This document shows positions 388 through 43,455 of a stretch of DNA of 64,000 nucleotides, in pieces; within the stretch, counting starts at the first letter, position 1; every line of letters begins with the position of its first letter. The stretch lies in NCBI GenBank assembly GCA_021790195.1, contig JAJYIF010000011.1, positions 19,069-83,068 on the forward strand, written 5' to 3'. Both the position numbers and the translations under genes were made by a program. The notes beneath the pieces were generated by a model that worked only from the letters and a program-made list of their open reading frames with translations, was not told where the DNA came from and did no database searches. The DNA is from Nitrospirota bacterium. GTDB taxonomy: Bacteria > Nitrospirota > Thermodesulfovibrionia > Thermodesulfovibrionales > UBA9159.

Positions 388-479
388 AGAACAAGTCAAG
401 GCAAAGGATAAGGCTGAGGTCAAGATTGAGAGCTCAACCTTGACCTTAATCTCAACCTGCTTGGGAAGGAGGTGATCTT

Positions 480-1925
480 GTGGGTATAGAGAAACTGAGG
501 AGGATCGACGGGACAAGGATGGAAGTCCCTGTGGACTATAAGGCCGGGATGAGGGTCAGGGGGATAATCTACGTGGACGAAGTCCTTGACGATGCCCTCG
601 AGAACCAATCGGTGGAACAGGTGGCCAACGTGGCGACTCTGCCCGGGATTGTCAGGGCATCCCTTGCCATGCCCGATATTCACACGGGCTATGGCTTTGC
701 CATCGGCGGTGTCGCCGCCTTCGATATCAAGGAGGGAATCATCTCTCCTGGCGGTGTAGGTTATGACATAAATTGAGGCGTCCGTCTTCTCAGGAGCAAC
801 CTCAGAAGAGGTGAGGTCCTCCCGAGAATAAAGGACCTCGTGGGGGTCCTTCACAGCGAGATACCTTCGGGCGTGGGCTCGAAAGGGAAGATCCGTCTCA
901 GCCCTCAGGACGAAAGAAGGCTGCTTACGTCGGGCGCCAGGTGGGCCGTCGAAAACGGTTATGGGGAAGCGTCGGATCTCGAGAGGATAGAGTCGGGCGG
1001 CTATATCGAGGGCGCAGATCCCGAGCTCATAAGTCAGAAGGCTTACGAAAGAGGACGGGCCCAGCAGGGGACCCTTGGTTCCGGCAATCACTTCCTCGAG
1101 ATCCAATATGTAGATGAGATATACGACGAAAAGGCGGCCCAGGCCCTCGGCCTCTTCAGGGACCAGATGACTGTCATGATACATACCGGCTCAAGAGGTT
1201 TCGGCCACCAGGTCTGCACCGATTTTCTGGAGGTGATGGAGAGGGCCGTCAGCAAATATGGAATCGAGCTGCCGGACAAGGAGCTTGCATGTGCGCCTTT
1301 TAACAGCCCCGAGGCGAGAGATTATCTCGCGGCAATGAGGGCCGCAGCCAATTATGCCTGGGCGAACAGGCAGTGTATTATGCATTGGGCGAGGGAGGCG
1401 TTCCTCAGGGTCTTTGCGGCCACGCCGAAAGACCTCGGCATGGGCCTTATCTACGACGTGGCACACAATATAGCCAAGGTCGAAGACCATATTGTGGACG
1501 GAAAGAACATGAAGCTTATCGTCCACAGGAAAGGCGCGACACGCGCGTTTCCGCCGGGGCATCCCGAGCTGCCTGCGGCTTATGGGAAGACGGGACAGCC
1601 TGTCCTGATACCCGGAGACATGGGAAGGGCCTCCTTCGTTCTTATAGGGACTGAAAAAGCGATGCAGGAGACCTTCGGCTCTACCTGTCACGGCGCCGGG
1701 AGGATGATGTCGAGACATCAGGCCATACGCCGGGCAAAGGGCCGGGCGATCTGGCGGGAGATGGAGGACAAGGGAATAATCGTGAGGTCTGCCGGAAGGG
1801 AGACGCTCGCTGAAGAAATGCCGGAGGCTTACAAGGACATAACCAATGTCGTCGATGTCGTGCATAATGCAGGGATATCGAGAAAGGTCGCGCGTCTCAG
1901 GCCCATGGGCGTGATTAAGGGGTGA
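480..1925 (+). CDS. rtcB: RNA-splicing ligase RtcB with one in-frame TGA (774-776) at the active-site Cys position; candidate selenoprotein, otherwise a pseudogene or sequencing error
   Basis: ORFs 480-776 and 840-1925 share one frame. The joined translation has RtcB motifs ([49 protein letters not shown]). AGGAGGTG lies 5 nt before the GTG start at 480. Confidence 0.85.
785..809 (+). promoter_or_regulatory. Candidate bacterial SECIS hairpin downstream of the rtcB UGA
   Basis: The arms tcttctcagg and cctcagaaga flank the loop agcaa, and 9 of 10 positions pair. The stem starts 8 nt after the TGA. The G-containing apical loop starts 18 nt after the TGA. Folded by eye only. Confidence 0.4.
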
Positions 1926-1929
1926 TTGG

Positions 1930-2220
1930 ATGAAAATTTGCGCATTATGCAATAAAAAGATAGAGGTCGACAAGTATTTTTCGAGGAAGTCCGCGTGTCC
2001 GCACTGCAGAGGAGACCTTCACATCTGTCTGAACTGCAGGTTCTATTCTGAAACTGCTCACAACAAGTGCCTTGAACCTAAGGCCGAATTTCAGCGGTCG
2101 CGGGACAAGGCAAACTTTTGTGACTATTTCGTTTTCAAGGACGGACCGTCAGTCGCCGCATCCGGCGCTGAAAGGGAGGATGCGAGGAAGAAGTTCGACG
2201 ACTTGTTTAGAAAATCCTGA
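1930..2220 (+). CDS. Small Cys-rich (zinc-ribbon-like) protein coupled to rtcB
   Basis: 96 aa with CALC, CPHC and CLNC pairs plus further Cys residues. The ATG lies 4 nt after the rtcB stop. No family name recognised. Confidence 0.6.
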   Translation: MKICALCNKKIEVDKYFSRKSACPHCRGDLHICLNCRFYSETAHNKCLEPKAEFQRSRDKANFCDYFVFKDGPSVAASGAEREDARKKFDDLFRKS

Positions 2221-11149: not shown

Positions 11150-12061
11150 ATGCCGTTGAGAGTCGCCGTTGTGGGCGCAGGCTATTTGGGACAGCACCAC
11201 GCGAGGATATATGCGGAAATGAACGAAGCTGAACTTGCTTACGTGGTGGACAGTGACAAGGCGAGGGCGGATGAAGTTGCGGGCCGATACGGTTGCAGTG
11301 CCCGCACCGATTACCGCGCTGTACTCGCTGATGTCGATGTGGTGAGCGTGGTGGTCAGCACCACAAGTCATTTCGATGTGGCGCGTGACTGCTTAAGGGC
11401 CGGGAAGGATGTCATGGTGGAGAAACCCATTACGGCCACCTTGTCACAGGCGGATGAACTGGTAAATGAGGCGCAGAAGGCGGACTGCATATTACAGGTC
11501 GGGCATCTTGAAAGATACAACCCCGGAGTCAAGGTGATCTCTGAAATGGTGGATGGGCCGAGGCTGGTCGAGGCCGTCAGGCTGTCCCCTTTCCTAAACA
11601 GGGGCTGCGACGTGGATGTCACACTTGATCTTATGATACACGATATAGATATAGCTCTGAGCTTTATTCGGTCGCCTGTAAGGCGCGCCGACGCTGCGGG
11701 CTTTTCTTTCGTGACGGAGAAGATCGATGAGGCGAGGGCGTGGGTCGAGTTTGAAAATGGCGCAGTGGCTTGTTTTGCGGCGAGCCGGGTCTCGAATGAA
11801 AAGATGAGAAAGCTAAGTGTATTTCAGAAGGACGGGTTTATGGAACTCGATTATCAGTCCGGTATTGTCAAACGCACTTCGTCCGGCGCCGGGGAACCGG
11901 AAACCTTCAGGCCGGAATTCAAGGAGCCTTTGAAAGAAGAGCTCAGGGACTTTGTCCGTTGCGTCGCCAGGAGAGAGCGGCCTAAGGTATCGGGAGTAGA
12001 GGGCCGCAACGCCCTCGCACTGGCTCTTGAGATAGGCTCGGCAATGGAGAAGCACAGATGA
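11150..12061 (+). CDS. Gfo/Idh/MocA-family NAD-dependent sugar oxidoreductase (GnnA-like UDP-GlcNAc 3-dehydrogenase candidate)
   Basis: MPLRVAVVGAGYLGQHHARIY Rossmann N-terminus and an EKP motif (VMVEKPI). The stop overlaps the start of the downstream DegT aminotransferase (ATGA). I chose the start at 11150 over the ORF-track 11060. Confidence 0.75.
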   Translation: MPLRVAVVGAGYLGQHHARIYAEMNEAELAYVVDSDKARADEVAGRYGCSARTDYRAVLADVDVVSVVVSTTSHFDVARDCLRAGKDVMVEKPITATLSQADELVNEAQKADCILQVGHLERYNPGVKVISEMVDGPRLVEAVRLSPFLNRGCDVDVTLDLMIHDIDIALSFIRSPVRRADAAGFSFVTEKIDEARAWVEFENGAVACFAASRVSNEKMRKLSVFQKDGFMELDYQSGIVKRTSSGAGEPETFRPEFKEPLKEELRDFVRCVARRERPKVSGVEGRNALALALEIGSAMEKHR

Positions 12062-13155
12062 TCCCTATGGTCGATCTTGGAAAACAATTTGCGGGGATCC
12101 GGGAAGAGATCATGGAGATGATGTGCCGGATACTTGAGAGTTCTCACTACATCCTCGGTCCCAATGTCCGGGAGTTTGAGAAGAAGATAGCCGATTATTT
12201 AAAGGTCGCAGGCGCCATAGGAGTCGCCTCGGGGACCGACGCACTTCATCTCTCTGTAGAGGTCCTCGGTATCGGAGAGGGCGACGAGGTTATTACCACA
12301 CCATTTACTTTTTTTGCGACGGTCGAGGCGATTGTTTACACAGGTGCGCAACCGGTGTTTGTGGACATAGACGAGAAGACCTTCGCAATCGACTGCAGGA
12401 AGATCGAGGAAAAGATAACGCGCAAAACGAAGGCTATACTTCCTGTGCATCTCTTCGGTCATCCCGCGGACATGAAGACGGTTATGAAGATTGCCGGGAA
12501 ACACCGTCTCAGCGTTGTGGAGGACTGCGCCCAGGCCTTCGGAGCCGAGATAGAGGGCCAGAAGGTGGGCGGTTTCGGTAACACCGGCTGCTTCAGCTTC
12601 TATCCGAGCAAGAACCTCGGGGCTTATGGCGACGGGGGGATGATTACGCTCGGCAGGGACGGCAGCGTCTCGGACGAGATAAGGGAGCTCCGGAACCACG
12701 GGTCGAAGGGATCATATATTCATGACTCTGTCGGTTTCAACAGCAGGCTTGACGAAATCCAGGCCGGCATTCTCCAGATCAAGTTGAAAAGGATCGATGA
12801 ATACAACAGGAAGAGAAGAGAGAAGGCGGAGTTGTATAGCTCCCTGTTGTCGGACGCGGTCACCTGTCCGATTGAAAAGGAGGGTTGCTACCACGTTTAC
12901 AATCAGTATACGATCAGGTCTAGGAAACGGGATGAGATCCAGAGAAGGTTGAAGGAAGAGGGAATATCGTCTGTAGTTTATTATCCACGTCCGCTTCATC
13001 TCCAGAAGGCCCTGAGCTATCTTGGGCACAGGGAAGGAGATTTCCCTGCCGCGGAAGAGGCTGCGAAGGAGGTGCTTTCGCTGCCGATCTATCCGGAACT
13101 CGAGGAGTCTGACATAAAGAGAATCGCCGGTATAGTAAGAAAGGCCGCCGGATAA
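12058..13155 (+). CDS. DegT/DnrJ/EryC1-family PLP-dependent sugar aminotransferase (GnnB-like candidate)
   Basis: The family sequence is clear: ...GPNVREFEKKIADYL...ASGTDALHL...FYPSKNLGAYGDGG...RNHG... Confidence 0.85.
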   Translation: MIPMVDLGKQFAGIREEIMEMMCRILESSHYILGPNVREFEKKIADYLKVAGAIGVASGTDALHLSVEVLGIGEGDEVITTPFTFFATVEAIVYTGAQPVFVDIDEKTFAIDCRKIEEKITRKTKAILPVHLFGHPADMKTVMKIAGKHRLSVVEDCAQAFGAEIEGQKVGGFGNTGCFSFYPSKNLGAYGDGGMITLGRDGSVSDEIRELRNHGSKGSYIHDSVGFNSRLDEIQAGILQIKLKRIDEYNRKRREKAELYSSLLSDAVTCPIEKEGCYHVYNQYTIRSRKRDEIQRRLKEEGISSVVYYPRPLHLQKALSYLGHREGDFPAAEEAAKEVLSLPIYPELEESDIKRIAGIVRKAAG

Positions 13156-18743: not shown

Positions 18744-19058
18744 ATGAAAGAGATTCGGAAGATACTTCAGGACGCAAAACGAACAGGGATCATGCCCCTG
18801 TCGGCCTTCTGCATAGCACTTGCATCTTACGCGCTACTTACCACCCCGGTTTACAATCACCTTGATTCAGGAATCCATTCGGAACATCCGGCCTGCAAGT
18901 TTGCAGAGGCGCTCTCCTATGGAGACAAAGTGGATGCGTATGCGATGGCTGTCCCTGATTTCCAGTATATCGCCCTGGATTCGGACGGCATCATCCGGAT
19001 TCCTCTGATAGTTATTCCTGCGGACGGTTCCCGCGGACCTCCACTACTTGCAGCTTAG
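18744..19058 (+). CDS. Hypothetical membrane-anchored protein upstream of the multihaem cytochrome
   Basis: 104 aa with one predicted TM segment (MPLSAFCIALASYALL). No recognisable family and no clear SD. Confidence 0.45.
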   Translation: MKEIRKILQDAKRTGIMPLSAFCIALASYALLTTPVYNHLDSGIHSEHPACKFAEALSYGDKVDAYAMAVPDFQYIALDSDGIIRIPLIVIPADGSRGPPLLAA

Positions 19059-19166
19059 AGGAGAGTTTCGGTGATTACGTCTTATAACGAGGCGTTTCGA
19101 CCGGGGGACCGCCCTGCCGCAAAAAGGCGGTTCCCCGAGAAAATAACAACAGAGAAGAGAGGAAAC

Positions 19167-21026
19167 ATGAAGAAGACATATTTCTATCTGACTTTAGTGG
19201 TTGTTCTGAGTCTGACGATCATCGGCACTGCGTATTCGGAGACGAGAAAATACAGATATTCTGACGGCACGTATAGAGACACTACACCTCCCACAGTGAC
19301 TTCTTTCAGTATACCGTCGACTTCGACATCGCTCACCGTTCCGATAACTTCATTTATCGCCACCGACAATGTAGGAGTGACAGGCTACCTGCTGACTCTG
19401 TCGTCGACAAAGCCCTCGGCGGGTGCGTCGGGATGGAGATCGACACCGCCTACAAGCTATACCTTCGGCTCGGCAGGCACCAAGACGCTGTATGCCTGGG
19501 CAAAGGATGCGGCTGGTAACGTGTCCACGAGCAAGAGTGCGTCCGTTACCATCACCTTGTCCACTTCGGGCGGAGGCACAGGCGGCACCGGAGGCGGGAC
19601 TACCGGTGGAACCGCCGCCATCTCCGGCATTGCAAGGGACATCTTAACAGGCGCGGCCATCTCCGGGGCGGTCGTCAGTGACGGCACGCACAGCGCCGCC
19701 ACTAGCAGCACGGGCGCATATTCCCTGAGCGAAGCAGCGGGCAGCTATACGCTCTCCATCACGAAGTCCGGCTATCTGACCACCTCCCAGGTGGCTGCCG
19801 TTGTTTCAGGCGCTACAACTACATTGAACTGGGCGCTGATAAAGGGCTACGGTGCGCAGGCCATTCCTGCCGCAAATATGAGCTACGTAATACTCGCCTG
19901 GAACGACCTGGGAATGCATTGCGACCAGAACGACTACTCGTATTTCGCCGTCTTGCCGCCGTATAACACCCTGCATGTCCAGGTGTTCAGGCGCGGCGGA
20001 GAAGGCGCAAGCCTTATAACCAGCGGCATAACCGTCAGCTATTATTTCCCTAAGAAGACGAACTCCGCATTGAACACCAACTTCTGGCAGTATGCGCCGC
20101 AGTTCGGCTGGAACGTTCCAACCAACGTAGGAATCTCCGGAACGCCCCTTGCGGGAAATATGGCGATCGATTCAAAAGGCCTGAGCTGGCAGGCAGTGGG
20201 TATCCCCATTACTCCGTATGATGATGACGGAACGTGGGACCCCTATGGCACGGCCGTTATCACGGTGAAAGACAGCTCCGGCAATGTCCTTCAGACGGCC
20301 AACGTCGTGGCGCCGGTCTCGACAGAGATGATGTGCAGCAACTGCCACGGCACAACCAATCCTCAGCTCGACATTCTGGAGAAACACGATGCGCTCAGCG
20401 GGACATCGCTGACCGCCGACCAGTCGAGGGGTGTTGTCCATCTCTGCGCAGAGTGCCATTCCGACAACGCGCTTGGGGCCGCAGGCAAACCGGGAGTGGA
20501 AAGTCTTTCCCTGGCGATGCACAATTTCCATAAGGACAAGATGAACACTACCGCAGCGGCAAGCGCCACCAGTCCGAGCTGCTACAACTGTCATCCGGGA
20601 CCCAAGACCCAGTGTCTGAGAGGCATCATGTACCGGGCTGGCAAAACATGCACAGACTGCCATGGAGACATGAACGGAATGACGGCCTCGATGATGAGCG
20701 GGCGTCAGCCCTGGCTGCAGGAGCCGCAGTGCGGCAGCTGCCACGGCGCAAGCCATGCCGAAAACACCAATACGTTGTATCGCAACTCCGTCTTGATGAA
20801 TGCAGTGGATGGCGATATGAACGGCAAGATCTACTGCGAGGCGTGCCACAACGGCACTCACGCCGAGTTGACTACCGCAAACGCGGCAGACCCGACTATA
20901 CCTCAGAAGTTCCAGGGTGACAACTACTGGATCTGGAGCTGCACGGTATGTCACAGCAGTCAGTCGCAGCAGGCCATGCATCGCGGCAGTACCAGTACGA
21001 GCGGATCTACTACTACTTCAGACTGA
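19167..21026 (+). CDS. Secreted multidomain seven-haem c-type cytochrome
   Basis: I chose the start at MKKTYFYLTLVVVLSLTIIGTAYS (a signal peptide). Domains in order: Ig-like domain, Gly/Thr linker, carboxypeptidase-regulatory-like domain, then seven CxxCH motifs (CSNCH, CAECH, CYNCH, CTDCH, CGSCH, CEACH, CTVCH). Confidence 0.8.
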   Translation: MKKTYFYLTLVVVLSLTIIGTAYSETRKYRYSDGTYRDTTPPTVTSFSIPSTSTSLTVPITSFIATDNVGVTGYLLTLSSTKPSAGASGWRSTPPTSYTFGSAGTKTLYAWAKDAAGNVSTSKSASVTITLSTSGGGTGGTGGGTTGGTAAISGIARDILTGAAISGAVVSDGTHSAATSSTGAYSLSEAAGSYTLSITKSGYLTTSQVAAVVSGATTTLNWALIKGYGAQAIPAANMSYVILAWNDLGMHCDQNDYSYFAVLPPYNTLHVQVFRRGGEGASLITSGITVSYYFPKKTNSALNTNFWQYAPQFGWNVPTNVGISGTPLAGNMAIDSKGLSWQAVGIPITPYDDDGTWDPYGTAVITVKDSSGNVLQTANVVAPVSTEMMCSNCHGTTNPQLDILEKHDALSGTSLTADQSRGVVHLCAECHSDNALGAAGKPGVESLSLAMHNFHKDKMNTTAAASATSPSCYNCHPGPKTQCLRGIMYRAGKTCTDCHGDMNGMTASMMSGRQPWLQEPQCGSCHGASHAENTNTLYRNSVLMNAVDGDMNGKIYCEACHNGTHAELTTANAADPTIPQKFQGDNYWIWSCTVCHSSQSQQAMHRGSTSTSGSTTTSD

Positions 21027-39519: not shown

Positions 39520-40563
39520 ATGAAACAGTATGTGGTTGAGAAACCCGGGATTCGTAAGTCAGTCGAAGAAGAACTTAAACGGAAAAAGGTCTGCGCTCCT
39601 GTAAAGCAGGAGAACTCCGCCAATTTCTCCGCGATCCATTCATTCGAGGAAATAGTCTGGGGACCTCCCCAGACTGTAATCCCTCCCAAGAAGTACTTTC
39701 TCCCGACCTCTGAAAACATACTTTCCTTCAGGAAGCGTGACGGCGGATTCGAGGTGGAGGCGCTGAATGCGGCAGAAGAGATCGTCCTCTTCGGCGTTCA
39801 TCCCTGCGACCTGAACGCGATCTATCTGACCGACCGGATTTTTGCAGAAAAAAACCAAGACGAGAATTATCTCGCAAAGAGGGAAAAGGCTGTCCTGATA
39901 GGGGTGGATTGCCTTACGCCCTGCTCGCCGGAGGCGGTCTGTCTGAGGATGGACGGGCTTAATCCAGGGGACAGGTTTGACTTGTTCCTGACTGACATTG
40001 GGGATGTCTATTTTGTCGAGGCCGCATCCCGGAAGGGAGAAGAATTCCTGAGAGGAGAGGGAAGGCCCGCCTCGGAGATTGACCATCGGAAGCTCTCCTC
40101 CGTGCGCAAGCAGAGGGATGAACTCTTCGATCAGGAAGAGAAGAAGCTCTTGCCCGACTACAATGACTTGCCGGGGTTGATGAAAAGAAATTACGTGCAT
40201 GCCGTATGGGAAGAGCACGGGGAAAAATGTTACGGCTGCGGGTCGTGTAATATGGTCTGTCCGACCTGCTATTGTTTCGATGTGGAAGACTACATGAGGG
40301 TCGATCTGGAAAATGGCTTTCGCAAGAGATTCTGGGACGGATGCATGCTTGAGGATTTTGCCAAAGTGGCTTCCGGTGAAAACTTCAGGGAAGAGAGGTT
40401 TGACCGTCTCAGGCACAGGACTAACCGGAAGCTGAATTATCTTTTCGATAAGTGGGGCCAATCTTTCTGTACCGGATGCGGTCGCTGCATCAAGGCCTGT
40501 CTCACCCATATTGTAAGTCCCCTCGAAATCGCAAACGAGATCTTCCAAAGGCAATCTGTATGA
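39520..40563 (+). CDS. Group 3b [NiFe]-hydrogenase (sulfhydrogenase-type) beta subunit, Fe-S protein (HydB/AsrA-like)
   Basis: CYGCGSCNMVCPTCYCFD and CTGCGRCIKAC motifs. 347 aa. First gene of a four-gene cluster joined by ATGA-type overlaps. Confidence 0.8.
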   Translation: MKQYVVEKPGIRKSVEEELKRKKVCAPVKQENSANFSAIHSFEEIVWGPPQTVIPPKKYFLPTSENILSFRKRDGGFEVEALNAAEEIVLFGVHPCDLNAIYLTDRIFAEKNQDENYLAKREKAVLIGVDCLTPCSPEAVCLRMDGLNPGDRFDLFLTDIGDVYFVEAASRKGEEFLRGEGRPASEIDHRKLSSVRKQRDELFDQEEKKLLPDYNDLPGLMKRNYVHAVWEEHGEKCYGCGSCNMVCPTCYCFDVEDYMRVDLENGFRKRFWDGCMLEDFAKVASGENFREERFDRLRHRTNRKLNYLFDKWGQSFCTGCGRCIKACLTHIVSPLEIANEIFQRQSV

Positions 40564-41381
40564 AAACACTTTTCACTCCCGAGCCGGCAAAAATCAGGAA
40601 GGCCGTTCCCCAGACGGAATTTGAAACCTTATTTGAGATGGAGCTTTCGGAGAGGAGCACGCTTGGGCACAAGCCGGGCCAGTTTGTTGAGGTCTCGGTC
40701 TTCGGCGTGGGTGAGGCGCCCATCTCGGTCTCTTCCGCTCCCGCTCCTTCGATGCCGACCTTTGAGCTGTGCGTCAGAAAGGTAGGCAACGTCACTAATG
40801 CGTTATTGAGTATGAAGAAAGGGGACCATGTCGGAATTCGCGGCCCCTTTGGTAACGGGTTTGATGTGAATCTCTTCAAGGGGAAGGACATCATCTTTGT
40901 TGCCGGAGGGATCGGCCTTGTGCCTTTGCGTTCATTCATTCGCGAAGTCCTGAACCACAGGGAGGATTACAACAGGGTCTTTATCTTATACGGCTGCAAG
41001 AGGCCTAAGGACATTCTGTTTGAAGACGAGCTCATGTCGTGGGGGAGTTTGGAGGGTATTGACCTTCAGACGACGGTTGATATCGCAGGCGACGACTGGA
41101 AGGGGAACGTGGGGGTCATAACCACCTTGATGCCCCGCCTGTCCCTCGATCCTCCAAAGACCGAAGCCGTGATCGTGGGTCCGCCGGTCATGTACCGTTT
41201 TGTCATCTCCGAATTGAAGAAGCGGCTGGTCTCTGAAAAAAACATATGGGTCTCGCTCGAGCGCAAGATGAAGTGCGGCGTCGGAAAGTGCGGACATTGT
41301 CAGATGAACGGCGTCTATGTTTGCAGTGACGGGCCGGTCTTCAACTACGCGGCGCTCAAAGAGATACCGGAGGCTATTTGA
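40560..41381 (+). CDS. Hydrogenase gamma subunit, FAD/NAD(P)-binding with C-terminal [2Fe-2S] (HydG/AsrB-like)
   Basis: PGQFVEV...GEAPISV, IFVAGGIGLVPL, and a C-terminal CGVGKCGHCQMNGVYVCSDGPVF. The ATG at 40560 overlaps the upstream stop. Confidence 0.85.
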   Translation: MKTLFTPEPAKIRKAVPQTEFETLFEMELSERSTLGHKPGQFVEVSVFGVGEAPISVSSAPAPSMPTFELCVRKVGNVTNALLSMKKGDHVGIRGPFGNGFDVNLFKGKDIIFVAGGIGLVPLRSFIREVLNHREDYNRVFILYGCKRPKDILFEDELMSWGSLEGIDLQTTVDIAGDDWKGNVGVITTLMPRLSLDPPKTEAVIVGPPVMYRFVISELKKRLVSEKNIWVSLERKMKCGVGKCGHCQMNGVYVCSDGPVFNYAALKEIPEAI

Positions 41382-42136
41382 TGGCGGACAGGCCGAAAGT
41401 CGGTTTCTTCAGTTTCACGGGCTGCGAGGGATGCCAGCTGGTGGTCCTCTCGATGGCGGACAGGCTGCTTGAGCTTCTTGGCGCTGTGGAGGTCGTCAAC
41501 TTTAGAGAGGCCTCGAGTTATAAGTGCGATGATTACGATATCGCGATTGTCGAGGGCGCGATTTCGAGGGTGCGTGAGATCACGGAACTGATCGAGATCA
41601 GAAAGCGCGCCGGGACTCTCATCGCGCTCGGCGCCTGCGCCCATGTTGGCGGCATAAACTGCATGAGGAATTTCGCCAATCAGTTCGAGATAAAGAAAGA
41701 GGTATACGGGGACAAGGCATCGAATTTCGATTCCTTTCTTGCGCAGCCGCTCGATGCTATCGTCAAGGTCGATCATTATGCGCGCGGCTGTCCGCCCAGC
41801 AGGGACGGTGAAGAGTTCCTGGAGATCGTGGTGGCGCTGATGCAGGGGAAGAGACCTTATATCCCTAACTATCCGGTCTGTGTTCACTGCAAGATGAAGG
41901 GGAACGTCTGCGTCTTTCACAAGGAGAGGCCGATTGCATGCCTGGGGCCGGTCACGCGCGCCGGCTGCATGGCCGCCTGTCCGAGCTTCGGCAACGCCTG
42001 TATAGGCTGCCGGGGACTGGCCGGCAAGCCGAATCTGAACGCCCACCAGCAAACCATGGAAGAGGCCGGTCTGACTCCCGAGGAGACGATGAAGTTCTAC
42101 CGGATGCTTAACGGGATGATGGAGGTCGGCAAATAG
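41378..42136 (+). CDS. [NiFe]-hydrogenase small (delta) subunit
   Basis: KVGFFSFTGCEGCQL..., ...ALGACA..GGI..., ...GCPP...CV.CK..GNVCV....PCLGPVTRAGC.A.CPS.G..CIGCRG. Confidence 0.9.
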   Translation: MMADRPKVGFFSFTGCEGCQLVVLSMADRLLELLGAVEVVNFREASSYKCDDYDIAIVEGAISRVREITELIEIRKRAGTLIALGACAHVGGINCMRNFANQFEIKKEVYGDKASNFDSFLAQPLDAIVKVDHYARGCPPSRDGEEFLEIVVALMQGKRPYIPNYPVCVHCKMKGNVCVFHKERPIACLGPVTRAGCMAACPSFGNACIGCRGLAGKPNLNAHQQTMEEAGLTPEETMKFYRMLNGMMEVGK

Positions 42137-43455
42137 TGGCCAGGGACATGCAGGTCAATGTTCATCATATCGCCCGCGTGGAAGGGCACGGCAACATCGT
42201 GATCGACGTTCAGGCCGGAGAACTGAAGAAGGTGGAGCTCGACATTGTGGAGTCCCCGCGCTTTTTCGAGGCAATGCTTGGCGGGCGAAGATATCCTGAG
42301 GCGCCCCAGATTACCTCCCGCATCTGCGGCATCTGCTCGGTCGGTCATGCGACGGCTTCTCTGAGGGCGCTTGAAGACGCCTTGGGGATCGAGCCTTCGA
42401 TGCAGACGCTACTGCTGAGAAAAGCGATACTCGAAGCCGAGACGCTTCAGTCTCACGTTTTGCACTACTATTTCCTCGTGGTCCCTGATTTTTTCAAGGT
42501 CCCGAGCGTGATCCCGCTGGCGTCAAGCCATCCGGATGTCGTCAAACGCGCCCTGAGGATGAAGAGACTTGCGGACGACATCATAGCGATGATAGGGGGC
42601 AGACATCCCCATCCGATATCCATGGCAATCGGCGGCTTCACTCATATGCCCGGGGAAGGAGAGGTCAGGGCGGCCATTTCCGATCTGAAAGAGGTCCTGG
42701 CGAAAGATGTCCCTCCTACAATAGAATTATTCGCTTCCCTCAGTTTTCCTGCGTTCGAGAGAAAGACAGATTACGTTTCCCTCACACACCCTGAAGAATA
42801 CGCCCTTTATGAAGGCGCAATTCATTCTTCGGAGACCGGCGAGACAAGACATCGCGATTATAAAAGCAAGGTGAAGGAAGAAGTGGTCCTCCACTCGACC
42901 GCCAAACATGCAAAAGGCCCTTTTAAGCCCTATATGGTTGGGGCGCTAGCAAGGTTTAACAACAATTCGGACAAGCTTATGCCAGGGGCAGAGGCAGCCG
43001 CGAAGAGGCTTGGACTTTTCGCTCAGAATTATAATCCGTATCTTATAACACTCGCTCAGGTAGTCGAATCGGTCCATAACATAGAAAGGATGATCTATCT
43101 CTTTGAAGAGATCCTCGACAGCGGTCTGAAAGAAGAGGACAAGGGGCAGATTGTCGCTGGCTGGTCAGGGAAAGTCGCGGAAGTAAAGAAATGCTGGGGG
43201 GTAGGAGCGGTCGAGGTGCCTCGCGGGACCCTCTTCCATGAGTATCGCATAGAGGGCGAACTCATTTCCGGCGCCAACTGCGTTATTCCGACCGCGCAGA
43301 ACCTCGCCAATATCGAGGAAGACATGAAAGAGCTTGTCCCTAAGGTCCTGGACAAACCGAAAGAAGAAATTACCCTCTTGCTGGAGATGCTGGTGCGTGC
43401 CTATGACCCGTGTATATCCTGCGCAGTCCATATGCTGAAGGTGGATTTTATATGA
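42136..43455 (+). CDS. [NiFe]-hydrogenase large (alpha) subunit
   Basis: The N-terminal RICGICSVGH and C-terminal DPCISCAVH Ni-binding motifs are both encoded as Cys. The alternative ATG start is at 42148. Confidence 0.9.
   Translation: MARDMQVNVHHIARVEGHGNIVIDVQAGELKKVELDIVESPRFFEAMLGGRRYPEAPQITSRICGICSVGHATASLRALEDALGIEPSMQTLLLRKAILEAETLQSHVLHYYFLVVPDFFKVPSVIPLASSHPDVVKRALRMKRLADDIIAMIGGRHPHPISMAIGGFTHMPGEGEVRAAISDLKEVLAKDVPPTIELFASLSFPAFERKTDYVSLTHPEEYALYEGAIHSSETGETRHRDYKSKVKEEVVLHSTAKHAKGPFKPYMVGALARFNNNSDKLMPGAEAAAKRLGLFAQNYNPYLITLAQVVESVHNIERMIYLFEEILDSGLKEEDKGQIVAGWSGKVAEVKKCWGVGAVEVPRGTLFHEYRIEGELISGANCVIPTAQNLANIEEDMKELVPKVLDKPKEEITLLLEMLVRAYDPCISCAVHMLKVDFI

Follow-up and report, generated by a model that had tools for sequence, protein, structure and literature searches.

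Contig JAJYIF010000011.1 of an anaerobic Nitrospirota bacterium carries, within the 64,000 nucleotides (nt) analysed here (positions 19,069–83,068; the whole stretch is called the window below), a gene of the RNA ligase RtcB whose reading frame is interrupted by one UGA, and this locus raises the question of how that codon is read. rtcB (480–1925) is very probably one gene, the UGA of which (774–776) would be recoded to selenocysteine (Sec) by way of a hairpin at 787–828, full-length Sec-RtcB being the product; the reading is derived from sequence comparison. UGA and Cys codons alternate at this site among orthologues, the frame is otherwise intact, purifying selection acts on the gene, and a conserved hairpin with covariation was observed in two lineages. 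rtcB was read as a selenoprotein gene because the signs used in the field for comparative recognition were found together: a Sec/Cys pair, orthologues with UGA, conservation downstream of it and a stem-loop immediately after it.

Reading frame of rtcB and the codon at the Cys98 position

The frame opens at GTG (480) and closes at TGA (1923–1925), and the internal TGA is its sole interruption; the original prediction had joined the open reading frames (ORFs) 480–776 and 840–1925 across this codon, and its translation was reproduced. Gene callers break rtcB into products of 98 and 361 amino acids (aa). UGA serves as an ordinary stop in this genome (it ends the archease gene, rtcB itself and the gene of the hydrogenase large subunit). 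Both halves of rtcB, before and after the TGA, match PF01139; the full-length product was aligned with P. horikoshii RtcB (PhoRtcB; PDB 1uc2/4dwq) over residues 5–481 (E = 6.8e-190), and the internal UGA fell on Cys98 of this chain, so that the numbering given earlier was right. The 63 nt that follow (777–839), previously described as RtcB-like, encode 21 residues; these can be matched position by position to GVRLIRTNLTEKEVRPRIKQL of P. horikoshii RtcB. Active-site motifs kept in the alignment: Asp95 (GYDIN), Asn202/His203 (GSGNHF), His234 (HTGSRG), His329/Asn330 (VAHNI) and His404 (CHGAGR); the metal ligands Asp95, His203, His234 and His329 and the nucleophile His404 make five of six kept positions, the sixth, Cys98, being the UGA codon. 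The ligand set of RtcB is therefore complete here only if Sec or Cys is inserted at the UGA.

A protein search with the portion downstream of the TGA gave 120 close relatives (81–88% identity) from Nitrospirota/Thermodesulfovibrionales metagenome-assembled genomes (MAGs); 29 of them were truncated genes starting just past the Cys position. Orthologue DNA was taken from 80 species-representative genomes (Nitrospirota/Thermodesulfovibrionia); one locus was without the motif and 79 were scored; codon at the Cys98 site: TGA – 25, TGC – 43, TGT – 11, TAA or TAG – none. The alternation of TGA with TGC/TGT, proposed earlier as a check on the Sec interpretation, is thus present. All 25 TGA genes were free of any other stop over 473 aligned codons; the ratio of non-synonymous to synonymous substitution rates (dN/dS) in the TGA forms was 0.07 before the TGA and 0.06 after it, and 0.05–0.06 in the Cys forms; the synonymous rate (dS) among the TGA forms was about 2, i.e., they are deeply diverged. 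On a neighbour-joining tree, 10 or more switches between Sec and Cys were counted.

The 1446-nt gene, its TGA included, was identical in ENA assembly ERZ27233560 and in the Logan assembly of another run, SRR13170412. Relaxed constraint, extra lesions and stops of any type, by which a pseudogene is recognised, were not observed; a Sec/Cys pair, and UGA orthologues elsewhere that are conserved before as well as after this codon, as in bacterial selenoproteins, were. Recurrence of the allele in independent assemblies and purifying selection on both sides make the assembly error or recent pseudogene named earlier as refuting outcomes very unlikely, and the Sec-RtcB interpretation of the original prediction is supported by the alternation, the hairpin, dN/dS and this recurrence.

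A metagenome scan with the degenerate pattern GGNRTNGGNTWYGAYATHAAYTGAGGNGT gave at least 120 contigs with TGA-rtcB, most of which belong to a second lineage (Thermodesulfobacteriota; lineage 2 below); among the matches listed, about 22 contigs were window-like, and the remainder formed seven further clusters that share 56–64% protein identity with the window. Of the 120 database protein clusters nearest to the largest of these, 110 were 379-aa fragments starting four codons past the TGA and 10 were full-length Cys forms; on this count TGA forms outnumber Cys forms in lineage 2 by about 11:1. Assignment to Thermodesulfobacteriota was made by a neighbouring PBP1A gene (90% identical to proteins so labelled).

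An intein-containing RtcB (NCBIfam NF038162) was considered for the window gene and rejected: its score of 788 fell short of the 1150 cut-off, the best stretch covered the C-extein only (query 98–481 on profile 578–961), and 481 aa are too few for an intein of about 480 positions besides the exteins. In archaeal RtcBs the intein is inserted exactly at the residue encoded here by the UGA, Cys98 serving them as +1 extein nucleophile, and the match to NF038162 breaks at residue 98; one rtcB codon hosts two distinct unusual genetic events (intein and UGA) in different lineages.

Hairpins downstream of the UGA

The 66 nt after each TGA were folded for 26 TGA sequences (the window and 25 orthologues), and the hairpin that corresponds to 787–828 of the window (stems and loop in Table 1) is the candidate selenocysteine insertion sequence (SECIS; bSECIS for the bacterial element). 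In the alignment of the TGA forms, 85.6% of the cells were paired in its consensus structure. Double changes, compensatory and synonymous, were observed at three pairs (21/60, 24/57 and 32/50); pair 21/60, for example, has gone from CG to UA in the window and in the orthologues L003 and L004 through the synonymous replacements CTC to CTT (Leu) and AGG to AGA (Arg).

Mean minimum free energy (MFE) of the 44-nt element: TGA forms, −23.6 kcal/mol (z = −5.2); Cys forms, −7.6 kcal/mol (z = −0.9), z being taken from dinucleotide shuffles; Mann-Whitney p = 9e-11 between the two; 1475 other 44-nt segments of the same genes, mean −9.1 and minimum −22.1 kcal/mol. Base composition is not the cause, as TGA forms with low GC at third codon positions (GC3) keep the hairpin (−19 to −30 kcal/mol) and Cys forms with high GC3 away from the TGA clades are without it (−5 to −9 kcal/mol). 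The Cys forms L018, L051, L058, L060, L068, L071 and L033 have a strong hairpin (−17 to −24.5 kcal/mol, ca. 12–56 nt past the Cys codon) and have TGA forms as their neighbours in the tree; they appear to be recent Sec to Cys conversions with fossil SECIS elements. Restriction of the hairpin to TGA forms, as anticipated in the original prediction, was accordingly found in part: all TGA forms have it and most Cys forms are without it, but the Cys neighbours of TGA forms have kept it.

The published bSECIS criteria (PMC13188914) are: loop of 3–9 nt, upper stem of 4–16 bp, a G within the first two positions of the loop, 16–37 nt from the UGA, MFE not above −7.5 kcal/mol. The window element lies within all of these limits (loop GAAGAGG, 28 nt, 6-bp upper stem, −19.6 kcal/mol), and all 26 hairpins of its lineage agree in spacing and energy, but only 7 of them in the loop G.

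The original prediction had named two other hairpins. That of 785–794 with 800–809 exists as described (9 of 10 positions paired, loop AGCAA 18 nt past the UGA) but is not the conserved SECIS candidate: among the 26 TGA sequences it was present only in the window, L003 and L004, and it needs a CAGAAG stretch that, in the other 23, is the variable loop region of the conserved hairpin. That of 813–820 with 832–839 is a perfect 8-bp hairpin, mutually exclusive with the 3' arm of the 787–828 hairpin. The region as a whole folds stably: 765–850 (86 nt) folds at −33 kcal/mol (z = −2.55; 2 of 200 shuffles were as stable).

The hairpin of lineage 2 is compact and shorter, GCGCUCA-GGUC-UGAGC(C)GC, with a GGUC or GGUU loop that starts 21 nt past the UGA in 73 of 92 sequences; its apex CAGGUCUG is the same as that of E. 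coli fdhF (read from the E. coli genome; fdhF loop 18 nt past the UGA). Outside the window lineage, 89 of 92 sequences conform to the published bSECIS limits. Subgroups with other amino-acid sequences pair at the same place with different bases, e.g., GAAGACC-AGUCU-GGUCUUC, in which 6 of 7 pairs are doubly changed. Four lineage-2 loci (two distinct sequences) have TGC at the site and yet keep the hairpin. One fixed structure for the whole of lineage 2 fitted poorly, the register of the stem shifting among subgroups, and per-sequence folding was used instead; Rfam at permissive E-values gave no relevant match on ten lineage-2 loci. The small TGA-rtcB clusters (L095/L120/L144/L168; L149/L201; L132/L134; L152), at 56–64% identity to the window, have hairpins of quite different sequence, CUCAGC-AGUUC-GCUGAG being another example beside the GAAGACC one above.

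Decoding of the UGA and its alternatives

As the ribosome nears the UGA, the 787–828 hairpin of the mRNA would act as a bacterial SECIS and recruit SelB·GTP·Sec-tRNASec, and Sec rather than another residue would be inserted, with no termination. The product would be a 481-residue RtcB in which a selenolate, in place of the Cys98 thiolate, bridges both catalytic metal ions (M1: His234 and His329; M2: Asp95 and His203), and which is otherwise a normal archease-activated, GTP-dependent 3'-phosphate/5'-hydroxyl RNA ligase. SelB binding and the choice of Sec over another residue are inferred, as is a selective advantage of Sec. Oxidised Sec is reduced back more readily than over-oxidised Cys. The most plausible advantage, given this ease of re-reduction and the oxidation of the cysteine in PhoRtcB and human RTCB, is that the metal-bridging residue would resist being irreversibly inactivated by oxidation; a changed metal affinity or selectivity would be the alternative. 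In PhoRtcB, Cys98 bridges Mn1 and Mn2, the alanine mutant loses all ligation steps, and a crystal showed Cys98 in the oxidised, sulfonic acid form (PMC9745838); Cu-dependent oxidation inactivates the equivalent cysteine of human RTCB, and its protection depends on PYROXD1 (PMC12263435).

Several observations weigh against Sec insertion. P. horikoshii RtcB engineered to carry Sec98 cleaved itself in E. coli at a nearby peptide bond (PMC4150793), hence replacement of Cys by Sec is not automatically benign, and the natural TGA-rtcB genes keep the same DIN-U-G (Asn-Sec-Gly) context as the self-cleaving U98 protein. The G in the first loop positions was found in only 7 of the 26 hairpins of the window lineage (the window included), the loops being A-rich; Rfam gave no relevant match in the whole window at the gathering threshold nor in 700–900 at permissive E-values. 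selA, selB, selD and tRNA-Sec were not found in the roughly 85 kb of this genome that was covered, which includes the 64-kb window and the 10 kb upstream of it, nor in related loci totalling 1.2 Mb: no tRNA-Sec was detected when the window and 60 loci were scanned for tRNAs; Pfam on the large ORFs of the window gave cytochrome c, SMC, ABC transporter, RpoD, GatA/GatB and others, with no SelA, SelB or SelD among them; tblastn with E. coli SelA, SelB and SelD against the 1.2 Mb (window and loci) gave one weak GTPase match only. No second selenoprotein gene was seen in the window, its [NiFe] hydrogenase being of the Cys type (DPCISCAVH). When the window was scanned mechanically for other ORFs that a lone TGA splits, 50 candidates emerged, none of them convincing; two, the 18744/19071 pair and the hydrogenase large subunit (both below), were inspected by sequence. 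Use of Sec by this organism is supported only at the level of the lineage, from the literature: Thermodesulfovibrio genomes have selA, selB, selC and selD (PMC5389517), the Sec-containing MccSep, a cytochrome family, is common in Thermodesulfovibrionia (PMC13510729), and Thermodesulfobacteriota are among the most selenoprotein-rich bacteria (PMC13188914).

Insertion of cysteine, likewise with the help of the hairpin, would require a tRNASec-like tRNACys with the anticodon UCA (selC*), delivered by SelB or a SelB paralogue. Genes of selC* tRNACys occur in Thermodesulfovibrio, Nitrospirae-like contigs and deltaproteobacteria, and the form with the UCA anticodon can decode UGA as Cys (Mukai et al., PMC5389517); both TGA-rtcB lineages fall within taxa that have selC*. 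The UCA forms with dedicated CysRS*/SelB* are, however, tied to subgroups of Desulfobacterales and Syntrophobacterales, and every selC*-containing genome also had the full Sec machinery (PMC5389517). Recoding to Cys brings no gain over a plain TGC, yet TGA has been kept across a dS of about 2 and prevails over Cys codons by about 11:1 in lineage 2; this reading is unlikely. SelB-independent read-through, in which the UGA is inefficiently decoded by a near-cognate tRNA (Trp, Cys or Arg) while the stable hairpin holds up the ribosome, would give little full-length protein along with a 98-residue fragment and so act as a regulatory throttle on RtcB; the canonical G/GU is absent from the loop in 19 of the 26 window-lineage sequences, and the lack of Sec genes in the window, the upstream 10 kb and the 1.2 Mb of loci would agree with it as well. 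It is nevertheless quite unlikely: Trp or Arg at a position where the alanine mutant is dead would leave the enzyme inactive, lineage 2 has a textbook fdhF-like SECIS apex, and the strict alternation of TGA with TGY is the signature by which the field recognises a Sec/Cys pair.

That the UGA simply terminates, the gene being a pseudogene or RtcB being made in two pieces (98 aa and a restarted C-terminal fragment) without the cysteine, is very unlikely. The products of 98 and 361 aa given by gene callers and the AAGGA found 5' of the GTG at 840 would suit such a restart, but the candidate restart codons vary (15 of 26 sequences have GTC after the Gly codon, and the Val codon at 840 occurs with all four third bases), and a fragment from 840 would be short of 21 conserved residues and also of the metal-bridging one, which is essential; dN/dS is 0.06–0.07 on both sides in 25 species, a second lesion was seen in none, and the stop is always TGA. 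A sequencing or assembly error at 774–776 is for practical purposes refuted: the identical gene was present in two independent assemblies, and TGA was found in 25 other species genomes and at least 120 metagenome contigs.

Neighbouring genes, known systems and significance

An archease gene precedes rtcB in the window (Table 1); it is complete (138 aa) and directly 5' of rtcB in L082 and L083, and the archease-rtcB order is found in lineage 2 also (L206–L211). The 96-aa Cys-rich ORF after rtcB was called beside rtcB in the independent contig L083 too; no Pfam or NCBIfam match was obtained for it; it is possibly co-transcribed with rtcB and may be a zinc-ribbon partner in an archease-rtcB operon. 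In L206, L210 and L211 of lineage 2 the order of genes is rubrerythrin – thioesterase-like – archease – rtcB – DUF1786 – Ogt (methylated-DNA-protein-cysteine methyltransferase) – CheR. Farther along the window, the hydrogenase large subunit ends in ...DPCISCAVHMLKVDFI-TGA, a true stop, and is no selenoprotein. ORF 18744–19058 and the multihaem cytochrome gene that follows in the same frame were considered as one recoded gene and rejected, as a TAG lies between them and a separate ribosome-binding site precedes the cytochrome gene; they are two genes. The length and location of the ARAGORN tRNA suggest a false positive, and its anticodon is not UCA, so it is not tRNA-Sec.

Table 1: Features of the window (positions as in the window; nt, nucleotides; aa, amino acids).
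Feature	Position	Strand	Remarks
Archease (RtcB activator)	1–387 (ORF listed 49–387)	+	PF01951, E = 3e-31; 5' end cut by the window edge
Shine-Dalgarno-like AAGGAGG	466–472	+	7 nt 5' of the rtcB GTG start; read from sequence
rtcB, 3'-phosphate/5'-OH RNA ligase	480–1925	+	481 codons, single internal UGA; terminal codon also UGA
In-frame UGA, proposed selenocysteine codon	774–776	+	Residue 99 here, Cys98 of PhoRtcB
Conserved hairpin, SECIS candidate	787–828	+	Common to 26/26 TGA sequences; 3' arm overlaps the 813–839 hairpin
Lower stem of the 787–828 hairpin	787–791/824–828		Followed by bulged A792
Middle stem of the 787–828 hairpin	793–796/819–822		
Upper stem of the 787–828 hairpin	799–804/812–817		Loop 805–811 (GAAGAGG), starts 28 nt past the UGA
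First hairpin of the original prediction	785–809	+	Competing local fold, lineage-specific
Second hairpin of the original prediction	813–839	+	GAGGT and GACCTC conserved in TGA forms; pairs never vary, hence no covariation evidence
Small Cys-rich ORF	1930–2220	+	96 aa, several CxxC; starts 4 nt past the rtcB stop
Putative tRNA-Gly(GCC) (ARAGORN)	13010–13106	+	97 nt; inside a 365-aa ORF (12058–13155)
Protein with cytochrome c7/c3-type multihaem motifs and a CarboxypepD_reg domain	19071–21026	+	651 aa
Four-gene cluster resembling soluble [NiFe] hydrogenase	39520–43455	+	Fer4_22 protein, FAD/NAD-binding subunit, small subunit (Oxidored_q6), large subunit (NiFeSe_Hases)

The gene is like those of known RtcB enzymes (P. 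horikoshii PH1602, E. coli RtcB, human RTCB) in its full-length alignment, its metal-ligand and His404 motifs and the adjacent archease, and differs in the UGA at the Cys98 codon and the conserved hairpin; Cys is found at this site in every characterised RtcB (PMC9745838). With E. coli fdhF (formate dehydrogenase H) it has in common an in-frame UGA, a SECIS hairpin just 3' of it inside the ORF and, as proposed, Sec as a ligand of the catalytic metal. The CAGGUCUG apex is common to fdhF and lineage-2 rtcB, with the loop 18 nt past the UGA in the former and 21 nt in the latter, whereas the hairpin of the window lineage is longer, with an A-rich loop 27–28 nt from the UGA; moreover, the fdhF product is a Mo/W oxidoreductase and RtcB is an RNA ligase of the nucleotidyl-transferase type with a binuclear Mn site. 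[NiFeSe] hydrogenases likewise show Sec/Cys alternation at a metal-ligand position in anaerobic lineages of the sulfate-reducer type (PMC13188914), but are of another enzyme class with another metal, and the window's own [NiFe] hydrogenase is of the Cys type. The same residue was deliberately replaced by Sec in engineered P. horikoshii RtcB U98 (Söll laboratory, PMC4150793); there a UAG codon and delivery by EF-Tu were used with no SECIS, and the product was self-cleaving, whereas a natural UGA with a hairpin has been maintained here in evolution. The metazoan RTCB-PYROXD1 pair meets the same vulnerability, loss of activity when the catalytic cysteine is oxidised, with a protein partner that shields the site, the residue being unchanged; its connection with Sec-RtcB is an inference.

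Full-text literature searched for RtcB names combined with selenium terms yielded the engineered U98 protein only, the groundwater-MAG candidates of Deng et al. 2026 lying outside the scope of the search. The May 2026 review of more than 110 prokaryotic selenoprotein families (PMC13188914) contains none of the terms "RtcB", "ligase", "splicing" and "PF01139"; RtcB was not found in the deep-Sep supplements; NCBIfam release 20 has many selenoprotein-specific models, none of them for RtcB; and none of 363 retrieved database proteins contained U. Most likely, judged from these comparisons, this is a new selenoprotein family served by a known bacterial recoding mechanism, the position and the enzyme class being unusual. 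On balance it is likely that Sec-RtcB is a widespread and overlooked family, present in at least two anaerobic phyla through repeated origin or exchange, that it is a bacterial answer to the fragility of the cysteine, and that a non-canonical SECIS serves it in Thermodesulfovibrionia.

Annotation pipelines split or discard TGA-rtcB, and hundreds of database protein clusters are 361–381-aa fragments; because the genes are broken in this way and NCBIfam has no model for them, the RNA-repair capacity of Thermodesulfovibrionia and Thermodesulfobacteriota genomes is under-called. The many Sec/Cys switches, together with the fossil hairpins, offer a clean system for the study of SECIS gain and loss, and the family is a natural experiment in how RtcB copes with the oxidation and Cu-induced loss of its essential cysteine (PMC9745838, PMC12263435). 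If the Sec reading is true, Sec-RtcB would be the predominant form of RtcB in the Thermodesulfobacteriota lineage and a bacterial solution to the oxidative fragility that animals meet with PYROXD1, and the long stem with an A-rich loop would be a non-canonical SECIS of Thermodesulfovibrionia. Among enzymes of RNA ligation or repair it would further be the first selenoenzyme, and its selenolate would be the first to bridge a binuclear Mn(II) centre. To our knowledge, nearly all known selenoproteins are oxidoreductases; Sec occurring naturally in a nucleotidyl-transfer RNA ligase, as the ligand bridging two Mn ions, would extend the range of chemistry in which selection favours selenium.

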